A stretch of DNA of 64,000 bases from an uncultured Verrucomicrobiae bacterium (GCA_963836755.1 CAWIKF010000001.1:512001-576000), one strand, 5' to 3'; shown: positions 1 to 64,000, counted from the first letter of the stretch. Notes: generated by a model from the letters alone, not told the origin. Program-made: numbers and translations.

Positions 1-544
1 AAAATGGATAATCGCGCAGTCGCACCTGCTCGATCACTTCGTCGCTCGCGGACCAGGCTTCAATCTCGAGACCGTCACCGAGCCGATCAATCGCCTGGTG
101 ATGCGAGCTGTTGACGTTTGCAAAACGATGTGTCGCGTGCTGCGCGAAGCGAAGCGGCTGGATATTTTGCAGTTTTTGCTCCGGCGCATCGTGGCCGCGG
201 ATGTCGAGATGCAACCTGCCGCCGAGCGCGACGTTGAGCACTTGATGGCCTTTGCAAATGGCGAGCACCGGCTGCCCGGCTGCGAGCGCCGTGCGCACGG
301 CGTCGAACTCCCATGTATCGCGCGATGGCTCCGGATCCTTGATTACATCAGGGTTTGCGACGGGCTGGTGTAAAAACTCGCGCGAAATATCCGGCCCGCC
401 CGAAAGCAGCAGCCCGTCCATTTCACTGGAATCAAAGTTCGGATCGCGGCGCGCGTTGAAAACTTCCAGCGCCGGCTGCATGTCGAAAAATCTTTGGAAC
501 GGCGCCTCGTCGCTTTCACGAATCCATGTGGCCAGTTTCGGCAT
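1..544 (-). CDS. Peptidase C26 / gamma-glutamyl-GABA hydrolase-like glutamine amidotransferase (3' end runs off the window)
   Basis: Not in the ORF track. Manual minus-strand translation from ATG at 544: MPKLATWIRE...DGLLLSGGPDI...VLAICKGHQVLNVALGG...VNSSHHQAIDRLGDGLEIEAWS...VIEQV, which carries the class I GATase nucleophile elbow and the VNSxHHQA motif. Confidence 0.85.
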   Translation of the reverse strand, partial: MPKLATWIRESDEAPFQRFFDMQPALEVFNARRDPNFDSSEMDGLLLSGGPDISREFLHQPVANPDVIKDPEPSRDTWEFDAVRTALAAGQPVLAICKGHQVLNVALGGRLHLDIRGHDAPEQKLQNIQPLRFAQHATHRFANVNSSHHQAIDRLGDGLEIEAWSASDEVIEQVRLRDYPF

Positions 545-637
545 TTCGGATTATGCCGCAGGCCGGCTCCGTGCGCGAACGCATTTTTTTAAAACACTGC
601 TTGTCAAAGTTCCTGCGACCGCTACCATCTCCCCTTT

Positions 638-976
638 ATGAAAAAAATCGAGGCGATCATCAAGCCGTTCAAGATGGAAGACGTGAAAGAAGCGTTGGCC
701 GAAATCGGCATTGAGGGAATGACCGTCAGCGAGGTCAAAGGGTTCGGTCGCCAAAAAGGGCACACGGAGATTTATCGCGGCAGTGAATACACCGTCGATT
801 TTTTGCCGAAGGTGAAATTCGAAATCGTGCTCGGAGATGATCGCGTGCAAAAAGCGGTGGACGTGATCGTGCAGTCCGCAAAGACTGGAAAAATCGGCGA
901 CGGCAAAGTTTTCGTGCTGCCGATCGAGGAAGCCGTCCGCATCCGCACCGAAGAGCGCGGCGAGACCGCGATCTAG
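638..976 (+). CDS. glnB: Nitrogen regulatory protein P-II
   Basis: [12 protein letters not shown]...[17 protein letters not shown]...[11 protein letters not shown]; 112 aa canonical PII. Confidence 0.97.
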
Positions 977-1000
977 GCGCAACAACTTTTTCGCAACCGC

Positions 1001-1858
1001 TTGCACGACTATCTATTGTCGTTGCTCCTCGGCGTCGTCGAGGGCGTCACGGAATTCCTTCCCGTCAGCTCGACGGCGCACCTGCGCATCGCCGAGCAAC
1101 TTCTCGGCATCGGCCTGCACGATGGCTTTTGGAAGATGTATTCCATCGTCATCCAGCTCGGCGCAATCCTCGCCGTGCCGCTCTACTTTCGCGCGCGCAT
1201 CGCGAAGTTTCTCGGGACTTTTCCCCAAGGCGAACGCGGTGATCGCAACGTGCTCACGCATCCGCTGAGCCTCACGCTGCTCGCTTTCGTCGTGACGGCC
1301 GTGCCTGCGTTTTTGCTGACGAAGATCATCGGGAAAAATCTCGAGAGCCTTTATGTGATGGCGACTGCGCTTCTTATCGGCGGCATCGTGATGTGGCTGG
1401 TCGACGCACTTTGCAAAAATCCGCGCGTGACGCACATGGAGGAGATGAGCCTGCCGCAAGCGGTCTGGATCGGTGCGTGCCAGATTTTGTCCGCGGTTTT
1501 TCCTGGCACCTCGCGCTCGATGTCGACTATCGCCGCCGGCCAGCTCGCCGGAATGTCGCGCGCGACCGCGCTCGAGTTTTCGTTTTTTCTTTCGATCCCG
1601 ACGATGATCGTCGCGACCGGCTATGACTTGCTAAAAACCGTGATGCCGCATCATCACGCAGGCGCCGAGGCGATCGCGCCCGTCGCCATTCACGGTCACG
1701 AATGGATCGTGCTCGCGATCGGCTTTGTCGTTTCGTTCATCGTCGCGCTCGGGGTGATTGCGTGGTTTATGAACTGGGTGCGCAGCCGTGGTTTCGCGCC
1801 GTTCGCCATCTACCGCATTCTGCTCGGCGTCGCGCTTTTCGTTTATTTGGTGCGCTAG
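1001..1858 (+). CDS. uppP: Undecaprenyl-diphosphate phosphatase
   Basis: GVVEGVTEFLPVSSTAHL and FPGTSRSMSTI motifs; TTG start; multi-TM. Confidence 0.95.
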   Translation: MHDYLLSLLLGVVEGVTEFLPVSSTAHLRIAEQLLGIGLHDGFWKMYSIVIQLGAILAVPLYFRARIAKFLGTFPQGERGDRNVLTHPLSLTLLAFVVTAVPAFLLTKIIGKNLESLYVMATALLIGGIVMWLVDALCKNPRVTHMEEMSLPQAVWIGACQILSAVFPGTSRSMSTIAAGQLAGMSRATALEFSFFLSIPTMIVATGYDLLKTVMPHHHAGAEAIAPVAIHGHEWIVLAIGFVVSFIVALGVIAWFMNWVRSRGFAPFAIYRILLGVALFVYLVR

Positions 1859-2126
1859 TTCAGCGAGCGACGCAAAAAAAAATTAGCCGGCGAATGCGCG
1901 GCGAAGCTCCGCGATGTCGAGCTTCTTCATCGTGAGCAATGCCGCAAAGGCGAGCTGAACTTTGGTCGGATCGGGATCGGCAAACATTTCCTCCATGCCG
2001 CGCGGCGTGACTTGCCATGAGAGGCCAAATTTAAAGCTTTTCCAATTAGGACTTGCCACGAATCGGAGTCACTTTTATTCCATACGAACTCTCGCCATTT
2101 CGCGTCAGGATTCCCTTCCATCAGCC

Positions 2127-62112: not shown

Positions 62113-62121
62113 GCGCGCGAA

Positions 62122-62832
62122 TCATGCCGGCGGCAGTTCTTCCTGACAATTCCCGTTTTCGGCGCGCATCCTCTGCGCATCAAGGTTCGGCGCCAGCGCA
62201 TCCAGTCTTTTTTCAAAAACTTCCGCCACGCGATCGGCGACCGCCCGCACCGAAATCTCAGCGCCCGTCTCGCGCGCGAGACTCGTCATTTCCACTCCCG
62301 CGATCCCGCACGGCGTGATCCGCGCGAACGGCGACAGGTCGCCATTCACGTTCAGCGCAAAGCCATGCATGCTCGTCCATTGCCGCACGCCGACGCCGAT
62401 GCTCGCGAGTTTGCGCGGCCCGATCCAGACGCCTGTCAAACTTTCGCGCCGCTGCGCCGTCACGCCAAAATGCGCGCACGTCTCGATCAAAATTTCCTCC
62501 AGCGCTCGCAGATAAACGTGCAAATCTCGTCCGTGTGCGCGCAAATCCAAAATCGGATAACCGACGAGCTGCCCCGGCCCGTGAAAAGTCGCCTGTCCGC
62601 CGCGGTTGATTCGCACCACCGGATGCGGCAGCGCCGTCGCGTCGCGCAGGCTCGATTGATCCGGCGTCCGGCCGATCGTGTAAACCGGCTCATGCTCTAG
62701 CAAAAGAAGCTGGTCACAAATTTCACCCGCGACGCGCCGAGCCAGCAGCGATTCCTGCAGCGTCAGCGCTTCATCGTAGCTGACGCGGCCGAGCCATTGC
62801 ACGGCGAGCGTTTGTGTTGCGCTCATTTTCAA
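62122..62832 (-). CDS. lipB: Lipoyl(octanoyl) transferase
   Basis: EHEPVYTIG, RGGQATFHGPGQLVGYP, KLASIG, HGFALN, PCGI. Confidence 0.95.
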   Translation of the reverse strand: MKMSATQTLAVQWLGRVSYDEALTLQESLLARRVAGEICDQLLLLEHEPVYTIGRTPDQSSLRDATALPHPVVRINRGGQATFHGPGQLVGYPILDLRAHGRDLHVYLRALEEILIETCAHFGVTAQRRESLTGVWIGPRKLASIGVGVRQWTSMHGFALNVNGDLSPFARITPCGIAGVEMTSLARETGAEISVRAVADRVAEVFEKRLDALAPNLDAQRMRAENGNCQEELPPA

Positions 62833-63332
62833 ATTTGCACAAGCGTTGTCGCTCCGGTCGCGGCTGTTTGACTCGTTTGAAAATGGGTCAACCCGATGGC
62901 GATCGCGTCCGCAGCGTCCGGCGGCGGCGTTTCCGTGAGCCCGAGCAGCGCGCGAACCATGAAACCAACTTGCGACTTTGCCGCAGCGCCGCGCCCGACC
63001 ACAGCTTGTTTGACACGCCGCGGTGCGTATTCAAAAATCGGCACGCCTCGCTCCGCGAGCGCGAGCAGTGCCGCGCCACGCGCCGCACCCAGCGTGATTG
63101 CGACCCGATAATTCTGCACGAAGATCACTGCCTCGACCGCCGCGCAATCCGGCTCATGCGTCGCGATCAAAGTCGCCAGTCGATCGTGGATCGCCACGAG
63201 GCACGACGACGGTCGCAGCGCGCTGCCATTCGCGATCACGCCAAACTCCACGGCGCGAACTTTGCCCGCGTCTTTTTCGAGAACGGCGAAACCGGTCCCG
63301 CGCAACGAAGGATCGACCGCCAGCACGCGCAT
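62829..63332 (-). CDS. ruvC: Crossover junction endodeoxyribonuclease RuvC
   Basis: MRVLAVDPS...GF, AVE, GAARG, EYAP..VK.AVVG.G.A.K.QV, DAADA.A. Confidence 0.95.
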   Translation of the reverse strand: MRVLAVDPSLRGTGFAVLEKDAGKVRAVEFGVIANGSALRPSSCLVAIHDRLATLIATHEPDCAAVEAVIFVQNYRVAITLGAARGAALLALAERGVPIFEYAPRRVKQAVVGRGAAAKSQVGFMVRALLGLTETPPPDAADAIAIGLTHFQTSQTAATGATTLVQI

Positions 63333-63697
63333 TACTTTTTCCCGCGCTTCTCCTCCTCGGCGAGATCGAGGTGAAAGCGGCGCAGGAACCGGTTGAACAC
63401 CGGCGCGAAAAGCACGCCCGCGACGCCGATGAAAAGCAGCCCGCTGAAGAGCGCGTAGAACGACGCGAAAAGTTTTGACGCCGCATTGTGCAGCGGATCC
63501 ACCGGCCCCATGCCGCCGAGAATCATCGATGCGTTCAAAAGCGAATCGACCCACGGCAATCCGTCGAGCGCGTGATAGCCGAGCACGCCAATCGCCAACG
63601 CGATGCTGATGACGACAAATGCGACGCCTGCATTCCGCAGCAAATGGTGCGCGAAGCGGCGGCGCGAATGGAGCGGATGCTTCCGAAATTCTGGCAT
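63332..63697 (-). CDS. Small membrane protein (TM - pore-loop-like - TM)
   Basis: GYHALDGLPWVDSLLNASMILGGMGP...KLFASFYALFSG. Confidence 0.8.
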   Translation of the reverse strand: MPEFRKHPLHSRRRFAHHLLRNAGVAFVVISIALAIGVLGYHALDGLPWVDSLLNASMILGGMGPVDPLHNAASKLFASFYALFSGLLFIGVAGVLFAPVFNRFLRRFHLDLAEEEKRGKK

Positions 63698-63782
63698 CAA
63701 AGTTTCCTATCACACGCCGCGCGCAAGCAAAGATTTTGTCGCGCGCTCCGACGCTTCATTTCAAAAAAAGTCGCCGGTGCTG

Positions 63783-64000
63783 CTAGCGGCTGACGTCTTG
63801 TCGGAACGCGCTGATGGACGCTTTCATGTCGCTCTGGATCATGAACGATGCAATTTTCCGCTTGAGCCCGAAGCCGCCCGCGAGGCCGGGTGCCGAGACG
63901 AGGTCGCCCTCCCAAACGAGGCTGCCGCCGTGCCACGGCCAGATCTCCGCGCACGTGAGTGCGGTGAGGTAGCCGCTGCTGACATAAAAGTCGGCGTCTA
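63783..64000 (-). CDS. C-terminal part of a hypothetical protein (5' end outside the window)
   Basis: Open frame DADFYVSSGYLTALTCAEIWPWHGGSLVWEGDLVSAP...FRQDVSR* ending at 63783. Confidence 0.55.
   Translation of the reverse strand, partial: DADFYVSSGYLTALTCAEIWPWHGGSLVWEGDLVSAPGLAGGFGLKRKIASFMIQSDMKASISAFRQDVSR

Follow-up and report, generated by a model that had tools for sequence, protein, structure and literature searches.

GTAC has been almost completely eliminated from the genome of an uncultured soil bacterium of the Verrucomicrobiae (G000; four contigs, 3.18 Mb, 58% GC), which carries a gene for a predicted DNA glycosylase of the PabI family, whose known target is this tetramer. The gene lies in the stretch of 64,000 bases analysed here over its full length (C1:512001-576000, referred to as the window). 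Its product starts with a predicted signal peptide, and no partner methyltransferase is detected for it. Close homologs with the same features are found across Verrucomicrobiota, mostly in DNA that is likewise purged of GTAC. On balance, we lean towards the reading that these proteins are exported, GTAC-specific glycosylases that work without a methyltransferase, self DNA being marked by the absence of the target.

GTAC is nearly absent from the window and the genome

The window contains three GTAC sites, at 38138, 38326 and 39149, exactly those that a first-pass annotation of the sequence had picked out by eye. A second-order Markov model predicts 77.3 sites (observed/expected ratio (O/E) 0.039; Poisson probability of at most three sites, 2e-29), and the mononucleotide composition predicts 234.6, close to the rough figure of 200 given in the annotation. 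The Markov figure errs on the conservative side, since GTA and TAC are themselves made rarer by the purge. As the annotation had also stated, all three sites fall within the region of a Type I hsdM gene, which proves to be frameshifted.

GTAC is the only tetramer affected in this way. The second-lowest tetramer in the window is CTAA (O/E 0.43), and the other palindromes are unremarkable (CTAG 0.70, TTAA 1.00, GATC 0.87). GTAA, GTAG and GTAT occur 101, 75 and 80 times (256 in total, where more than 200 had been claimed), ATAC, CTAC and TTAC are indeed common (78, 112 and 111), and the TA-containing palindromes CTAG and TTAA are present in 23 and 80 copies. In both the window and the genome, the depletion of GTAC is 10 to 100 times stronger than that of any other tetramer.

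Genome-wide, we count 72 GTAC sites against about 3,622 expected from the Markov model or 11,805 from the mononucleotide composition. The four contigs hold 5, 67, 0 and 0 sites against Markov expectations of 928, 2524, 112 and 58, so that both small, plasmid-sized contigs are GTAC-free. The computed ratios thus agree with the near-total purging proposed in the annotation, with a qualification: 13 sites stay in the single rRNA operon.

The purge is written in the choice of codons, as seen in 2,265 open reading frames (ORFs) of G000 with at least 150 codons each. TAC makes up 55-65% of tyrosine codons after a codon ending in A, C or T, and 1.1% after a codon ending in G. The share of GTA among valine codons drops from 5-8.5% to 0.1% if the next base is C, and those of GGT and CGT, 12% otherwise, are 0.1% ahead of AC. 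GTAC is therefore avoided by synonymous choice in all three reading-frame registers, while the same codons are used freely elsewhere, which excludes an amino-acid or general compositional cause. The replacement spectrum of the lost GTAC sites is dominated by codon constraints.

Location of the residual GTAC sites

The residual sites were mapped as the annotation had suggested. The 13 sites in the rRNA operon, the only one in G000, comprise 8 in the 23S gene, 4 in the 16S gene and 1 in the spacer; one or more of the 16S sites are inside the universal TGTACACACCGCCCGT region. A further 19 sites lie in an element of about 42 kb and lower GC content (0.52; G000:C2:1255000-1301000), which encodes a phage-type integrase, a Prim-Pol/D5 primase and a group of defence proteins, namely GmrSD twice and HEPN RiboL-PSP, Mrr-like, Type ISP, NERD and PLD nuclease proteins. 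Another 27 are found in a glycoside-hydrolase cluster (G000:C2:376000-414500), where they are bunched in single genes, including a 999-residue GH2 gene with 8 sites and a rhamnosidase gene with 6, next to GTAC-free neighbours. These genes for carbohydrate-active enzymes look as if they had been acquired recently and singly. The remaining sites are the 3 in the hsdM pseudogene of the window and 10 elsewhere.

The region of hsdM (about 2 kb) has a normal density of GTAC, with 3 sites observed and 4.5 expected. It is part of a non-syntenic island (31.7-41.1 kb) that is otherwise free of GTAC (0 vs 14.2 expected). Synteny of the window with two sister species starts only at 41132, which identifies the Type I restriction-modification region as accessory, and the system has decayed, with hsdR split and hsdM in four pieces. 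The proposal that hsdM was recently acquired thus fits the pseudogene itself and does not extend to the rest of the island.

Two further clusters of sites were observed. At G000:C2:778406-778472, three GTAC occur within 66 bases that contain no called ORF and give no Rfam match at the gathering threshold. In the sister species G001, all 9 GTAC sampled are on a short contig (C2, 4,758 bases) and none on the other three stretches (29.6 kb); this contig may be contamination, the genome being rated 3% contaminated, or an island.

A predicted PabI-family glycosylase with intact catalytic residues

The product of the ORF at 44844-45656 matches the PF09522 model at 56-58 bits (cut-off 25 bits), and no other match is found in G000. 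Searches of the PDB with phmmer return R.CcoLI (7cfa, E 1.5e-22, query residues 39-266) and R.PabI (2dvy, E 2.1e-16, query residues 35-267), a full-length alignment. The AlphaFold2 model has a mean pLDDT of 90.9 and a pTM of 0.85. Compared with the PDB by Foldseek, it gives 16 matches at E <= 0.001, the best 12 of which were listed, all chains of R.PabI or R.CcoLI, with target-normalised template-modelling (TM) scores of 0.75-0.86; the best is R.PabI 3waz (0.86). The next match has an E value of 0.011 and a TM score of 0.25.

The catalytic residues of the family are Y68, H211 and D214, according to the available text of a 2023 review (PMC10273834). The homolog contains the motifs EWQIGY and HNED and keeps the counterparts of these three residues and of K154-Q-R. 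In the alignment of the clade of closest homologs, the counterparts of Y68 and D214 are invariant and that of H211 nearly so. The signature R-EWQ.Y-K.[KR]QR-H..D is complete or has one substitution in all 79 clade proteins extracted from their loci; the counterparts of Y68 and D214 are present in 79/79 and that of H211 in 78/79.

By homology, predicted fold and catalytic residues, the ORF is a member of the HALFPIPE family, and the PabI-family gene of the first-pass annotation is thus a full-length one with its catalytic residues intact. The clade would be expected to excise adenine at 5'-GTAC-3'. Because GTAC is the only tetramer purged from the host genomes, this specificity has probably been kept.

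The homology searches also matched a protein of 1,813 residues (P0154), in which 17 separate segments match the C-terminal part of the homolog (query residues 191-250). Judging from these matches, it consists of repeats of a PabI-like segment.

Search for a partner methyltransferase

The genes flanking the PabI homolog encode an aconitase and a tetratricopeptide-repeat (TPR) protein, so that no methyltransferase adjoins it. Elsewhere in G000, the PF01555 model finds just two fragments, both with stop codons, and PF02086 finds no match. PF02384 matches the broken hsdM and, weakly, an ORF of 1,114 residues, and PF00145 matches two intact C5 enzymes and a broken one. The methyltransferases found alongside classical PabI genes are scarcely recognised by Pfam, and G000 was therefore also searched directly with these proteins. 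No homolog of the classical PabI-linked methyltransferases, or of the beta-class methyltransferase of the clade described below, was found in the genome (best E 0.13); as positive controls, PabI-linked methyltransferases match one another at E 1e-79 to 1e-101. Among the families searched, G000 thus appears to have no cognate methyltransferase, either adjacent or elsewhere, of the kind that defines a Type II restriction-modification system.

A predicted export signal

A feature missed by the first-pass annotation is the predicted export signal of the homolog, whose N-terminus reads M/V-ARLRNLAGALLIALAINARG, followed by ADADYK at the predicted mature end. The assignment is heuristic, based on hydropathy scans and on presequence statistics for 168 distinct clade sequences. 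Their presequences have a median of 30 residues; 99% contain a stretch of 10 or more uncharged residues, and in 93% the n-region carries a net positive charge. The consensus at the junction is A-F-[A/C/G], an AxA site, followed by A-D-[T/A]-[E/D]-Y-[K/R], a conserved mature end. In the AlphaFold2 model of the homolog, residues 2-26 form a separate helix.

The hydrophobic N-terminal segment is present in 4/4 orthologs within the family, in 113/120 of the closest homologs and in 76/79 locus proteins. Among 50%-identity representatives of the whole PabI family (229 matches), it is seen in only about 8 of the closest clusters, and about 70 full-length representatives of the classical type have 5-25 hydrophilic residues in its place. 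By these heuristics, the clade has the n-region, h-region, small residues at -3 and -1 and divergent presequence of a Sec-type signal. The conserved signal suggests that the enzyme is located outside the cytoplasm, and probably in a different compartment from the chromosome.

The clade across Verrucomicrobiota

The ORF has 694 homologs at E <= 0.001, more than 120 of them at 50-67% identity; where a source is given for the closest ones, the label is Verrucomicrobia or Limisphaerales. A scan of species-representative genomes yielded 149 loci, and the locus figures given here refer to the best 80 of these 149. By their record titles, a few of which are evidently mislabelled, almost all of the 80 come from metagenome-assembled genomes (MAGs) of Verrucomicrobiota. 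The PabI genes sit among housekeeping genes and not in mobile islands: an aconitase gene is at most four genes away in 23/80 loci and an RsmB-like gene is a neighbour in 27, and ribosomal proteins and pyruvate dehydrogenase E1 also occur.

At least 8 GTAC are expected in 66 of the 80 loci, which were therefore evaluable. Fifty-nine of these are purged, 55 with no GTAC and 4 with one, i.e., 4 sites against 1,091 expected; of the 14 smaller loci, 13 are also GTAC-free. No methyltransferase adjoins the PabI gene in 77/80 loci, and a [DNS]PP[YFWH] or C5-type motif occurs in 3 of 475 neighbour proteins, one of the three being a methyltransferase.

The other 7 of the 66 loci are not purged. Immediately downstream of the PabI gene, the unpurged loci L122 and L151 each have an intact beta-class methyltransferase (DPPY ... 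FLGSGTT). The same methyltransferase is frameshifted beside PabI in unpurged L150 (L150:10918-11562), and the genome of unpurged L115 carries a 75%-identical ortholog elsewhere, as two overlapping frame pieces (G337:C172:5254-6005). These broken copies could reflect ongoing decay or errors in MAG assembly. On the PabI tree, L122, L151, L150 and L115 fall into a single group and are interleaved with purged relatives that lack the methyltransferase. In L094, all GTAC sites fall in the first 2.9 kb; the remainder of the locus has 0 sites against 17.5 expected.

The prediction that every unpurged genome of the clade has a beta-class ortholog was borne out in part: one was found in the genome of L115, none at ortholog level in those of L090, L100 and L094, and none at all in that of L114. 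In five purged genomes and in G000, the beta-class methyltransferase is represented by 30-35% paralogs or not at all.

PabI genes of the classical type also occur in the phylum, in 5/301 sampled genomes (126-153 bits). Their products have no signal peptide, and mutually homologous, gamma-like methyltransferases of about 380-410 residues adjoin them in all four loci with enough flanking sequence. Observed and expected GTAC counts in the five loci are 10/10.9, 15/25, 1/27.7, 20/19.6 and 18/30.7 (O/E 0.92, 0.60, 0.04, 1.02 and 0.59). Methylation and GTAC elimination thus appear to be alternative states, elimination going with the state that lacks a methyltransferase.

Relatives without the PabI gene

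In the order of G000, 37 genomes have no PabI gene, of which 30 are evaluable. Many of these relatives are intermediate (O/E 0.2-0.5), and five are as purged as G000 (observed/expected: G005 0/83, G024 1/125, G025 0/13, G028 3/33, G031 0/25.5). Among 15 controls from the phylum, 14 are not purged and one is (G160, 0/15.8). No PabI gene was found in the purged PabI-negative genomes by the Pfam model, by protein search or by a profile of the clade, the last applied to 8 genomes with no positive control alongside. G024 and G031 are 98-100% complete, which makes a missed gene unlikely. Beside the aconitase gene of PabI-negative G008 and G037, no remnant of PabI is seen: the position holds a gap of 266 bp in G008 and an unrelated ORF of 236 residues in G037.

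A tree of the aconitases was obtained by a quick search that left 14/27 inner branches without resolution, and the tips of G024 and G011 are aberrantly long, probably through a wrongly picked ORF; we therefore used its two supported sister contrasts. The purged genus of G000 is paired with G009 (O/E 0.78), and purged G021 with G008 and G014 (0.7-0.8), so that the depletion is not lineage-wide.

Genomic neighbourhood

The TPR-PabI gene pair (Table 1) is kept in G000, G001, G002 and G021, and tblastn finds it in 6/80 clade loci; a TPR homolog also adjoins aconitase, with no PabI gene, in G008 and G037. In addition to the LigD domain encoded in the window, G000 carries elsewhere an intact Ku gene (C2:1372520-1373059, 295-residue frame, 157 bits), and a ComEC gene is likewise present outside the window. 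The HNH_5 gene near the TPR-PabI pair was considered as an alternative GTAC enzyme and rejected, being carried by 38/41 genomes of the order irrespective of purge. Its identity is 66-91% in most of the 38 carriers, one of which is a reduced genome of 0.9 Mb, and it behaves as a housekeeping gene.

Table 1. Features of the 64,000-base window
Feature	Position	Strand	Remarks
GTAC-purged backbone	1..64000	.	0 sites outside 37259-39251; window outside island 0 vs 55.5 expected
LigD primase-polymerase domain ORF (nonhomologous end joining)	28801..29739	-	PF21686, 292 bits
Type I hsdR, split in two ORFs (33396-35234, 35275-35769)	33396..35769	+	GTAC-free; same non-syntenic island as hsdM
Frameshifted Type I hsdM pseudogene	37259..39251	+	HsdM_N and N6_Mtase fragments; PF02384 match in 4 pieces across frames
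Aconitase	41983..44841	+	Convergent neighbour of PabI gene; core-genome synteny anchor
PabI-family (HALFPIPE) DNA glycosylase homolog, 270 aa, GTG start	44844..45656	-	PF09522; sole genomic copy
Predicted Sec/signal peptidase I signal peptide, about residues 1-21	45594..45656	-	Heuristic; ...NARG before and ADADYK after the junction
830-aa coiled-coil protein with C-terminal TPR	45657..48149	-	Upstream; stop codon abuts PabI GTG start; N-termini of orthologs signal-like
HNH_5 endonuclease-domain gene	48170..48847	+	Near TPR-PabI pair
Tandem pair of PilT/T2SSE-type ATPase genes, for type IV pilus retraction	58444..60681	-	Context for DNA uptake

Origin of the purge and site of action

In the mechanism that we propose, GTAC would have been removed almost wholly from the genomes that carry the enzyme, mainly by synonymous substitution, and the sites left over would mark where removal is impossible (rRNA) or still pending (recently acquired DNA). 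Self DNA would be recognised by the missing target rather than by methylation. Export would keep the enzyme apart from the 13 irremovable rRNA sites, and it would damage double-stranded DNA with GTAC sites beyond the cytoplasm, most plausibly while this enters the periplasm during uptake. In Helicobacter pylori, according to the available text of PMC2588503, deletion of the GTAC methyltransferase is lethal with an active enzyme, though just 114-184 sites remain. For this reason, export would make an enzyme without a methyltransferase compatible with the rRNA sites. R.PabI requires no divalent cation, as stated in the part of the 2023 review available to us (PMC10273834), which would suit action outside the cytoplasm. 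The presence of ComEC and of type IV pilus genes makes double-stranded DNA in the periplasm during uptake a plausible substrate.

The self/non-self discrimination by elimination that the first-pass annotation had proposed is in line with the purge, the intact gene, the lack of a detected methyltransferase and the comparative pattern. Several observations weigh against this reading. Most directly, depletion as strong as that of G000 in relatives lacking PabI, which the annotation had named as evidence against a link, occurs in 6/44 evaluable PabI-negative genomes, so that the link to PabI, seen in 59/66 clade loci, is not exclusive. Either purging can have causes other than PabI, or it long survives the loss of the gene, as getting the sites back takes roughly neutral saturation; the same has been argued for Helicobacter hepaticus in the available text of PMC5388411. 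The clade loci are phylogenetically related, and the 59 of 66 are therefore not independent events. L090 and L114, sisters on the tree, are unpurged; their PabI gene is intact, and no ortholog of the methyltransferase was identified for them. The methyltransferase-linked members of the clade retain the signal peptide; evidently, export alone leaves a need to mark self DNA. Finally, G000 encodes candidates of other families, namely two C5 methyltransferases, a Type ISP enzyme and the ORF of 1,114 residues with its weak N6 match, and a methyltransferase of an unrelated family may have GTAC specificity.

The role of the proposed exported enzyme may be more specific. Acting in the periplasm, as an extracytoplasmic restriction system, a GTAC glycosylase would serve as a negative filter on DNA uptake, destroying foreign double-stranded DNA before it reaches the cytoplasm and letting kin DNA pass because it is GTAC-free or, in a minority of lineages, methylated. 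The purge would then have proceeded partly by a transformation-linked drive, since GTAC-free alleles could spread horizontally and GTAC-bearing ones could not. We regard this extension as tentative, a possibility to be entertained more than a view that we hold. As a driver of the purge, leakage of the pre-protein fits as well as transformation-linked drive does, and the signal peptide retained by the methyltransferase-linked members agrees with either.

Alternatively, the enzyme may be cytoplasmic and the purge a case of classical restriction avoidance. The N-terminal segment would then be a membrane anchor or an inefficient signal, and GTAC would be costly in an exposed chromosome and selected away, the rRNA sites being rescued by repair (base-excision, recombinational or Ku/LigD) or protected by a methyltransferase that has escaped recognition. 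The same pattern of depletion (more than 50-fold, with rRNA sites kept) is seen in H. pylori, whose PabI homolog is cytoplasmic; Ku and LigD are present in G000, and the purge includes both plasmid-sized contigs (0 vs 112 and 58). The methyltransferase-linked members, unpurged yet with the N-terminal segment, also behave as if their chromosome were exposed. The segment itself argues otherwise: across the 168 sequences, its n-region, hydrophobic core of 10-15 residues, AxA junction and conserved mature end are typical of a cleaved Sec signal. Moreover, with no detected methyltransferase and 13 GTAC in rRNA genes, an active cytoplasmic enzyme should be lethal, judging from H. pylori, and GTAC is tolerated in L090 and L114, where the PabI gene is intact and a methyltransferase ortholog was not identified. 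We therefore judge a cytoplasmic enzyme unlikely.

It is also conceivable, and we think quite unlikely, that the PabI gene is a passenger, the purge being the work of another agent, such as a GTAC restriction system of a different family, past or present, or of an ancestral methyltransferase-linked stage, and the homolog being merely tolerated where GTAC is missing and serving, for example, in the processing of extracellular DNA. This would explain the six PabI-negative genomes purged to the same degree, in which three search methods found no PabI; the intermediate ratios of 0.2-0.5 in many relatives are consistent with slow recovery after loss of the agent, and the frameshifted methyltransferase beside PabI in L150 indicates that such systems decay. 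A passenger would not be expected to show purging in 59/66 of its loci against 6/44 genomes lacking it, nor catalytic residues so strongly conserved across the clade. The tetramer that alone is purged is the known target of the family, the unpurged members cluster with a specific methyltransferase, and no second enzyme directed at GTAC came to light, although such enzymes are not searchable by family.

A lineage-wide mutational or compositional bias, with no enzyme involved, is effectively refuted and has a negligible probability: although CTAG, CTAA and TTAG are mildly under-represented (O/E 0.43-0.70), the depletion of GTAC exceeds that of every other tetramer 10- to 100-fold, close relatives span ratios from 0 to about 1, codon choice avoids GTAC in all three frames without shunning these codons elsewhere, and 14/15 phylum controls are unpurged.

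Comparison with known systems

An association of GTAC avoidance with the PabI family, in which rRNA genes keep sites, has already been described in Helicobacter and Campylobacter (PMC2588503, PMC5388411, PMC10273834, each as far as its text is available). HpyAXII and CcoLI share with the enzyme of G000 the protein family, fold, catalytic residues and long-term chromosomal residence, and their hosts share the severe depletion with rRNA sites kept; H. pylori retains 8-9 sites in 23S and 2 in 16S genes, by the available text of PMC2588503, and G000 8 and 4 of its 72. Like classical representatives of the family, HpyAXII and CcoLI are without a signal peptide, whereas the G000 enzyme has one, lacks a detected methyltransferase, belongs to another phylum and coexists with Ku and LigD. 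In the literature available to us, PabI is described as apparently incompatible with Ku/LigD in Campylobacterales. R.PabI of Pyrococcus abyssi, the founder of the family, aligns with the homolog over its full length (E 2e-16) and is its best structural match (3waz), and differs in having an adjacent methyltransferase (M.PabI) and no signal peptide; the genome of P. abyssi does not avoid GTAC, according to the 2023 review (PMC10273834). The range of the family given there comprises Helicobacteraceae and Campylobacteraceae, a few hyperthermophilic archaea and a few thermophilic bacteria and archaea. Our literature search found no report of a PabI clade with signal peptides or of GTAC depletion in Verrucomicrobia; it did not cover the supplementary homolog lists (Kojima/Kobayashi, Zhang), which may include Verrucomicrobia. 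The avoidance is therefore not new in itself, and the clade departs from the known systems in its phylum, signal peptide, missing methyltransferase and the presence of Ku and LigD.

Two other systems are instructive. PacI is a restriction enzyme without a partner methylase, whose host genome lacks its site. Its 8-bp, AT-only site is nearly absent from a GC-rich genome by composition, whereas G000 has been actively cleared of a 4-bp site that should occur thousands of times. The DNA uptake sequences and uptake signal sequences of Neisseria and Haemophilus are positive uptake signals enriched in the genome. If the exported enzyme filters incoming DNA, the likeness is that a genome-wide sequence property would decide acceptance and could spread by transformation-linked drive; the difference is that GTAC would be a negative signal, and eliminated. 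For G000, both competence and such filtering are hypothetical.

Significance

In textbooks, restriction enzymes are cytoplasmic proteins paired with a protective methylase. The clade breaks with this picture in its conserved predicted export signal, the usual lack of a methylase and the thousands of host codons that have been rewritten, and it should be of clear interest to specialists in restriction-modification, the purged genomes without the gene remaining an unexplained residue. GTAC-free genomes also have practical consequences: they distort tetranucleotide-based binning and RsaI-type assays, and in purged genomes the density of GTAC is a sensitive marker of recent horizontal transfer.

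With this clade, the PabI family, otherwise known from Campylobacterales and a few thermophiles, reaches a major phylum of soil and fresh water. The clade also contradicts two generalisations in the literature on the family, that the genes are always next to a methyltransferase and that they are incompatible with Ku. Self-recognition by target absence is supported by our data, and the site of action is suggested by the signal peptide; whether restriction glycosylases act outside the producer cell becomes a directly testable question. If our interpretation is correct, immunity by target absence would work for a short, frequent site and not just for rare 8-bp sites. If the enzyme in addition filters DNA during uptake, it would be the first support from nature for a published speculation, namely that enzymes of the PabI type work outside the cell that makes them, and GTAC would be the mirror image of the DNA uptake sequences.

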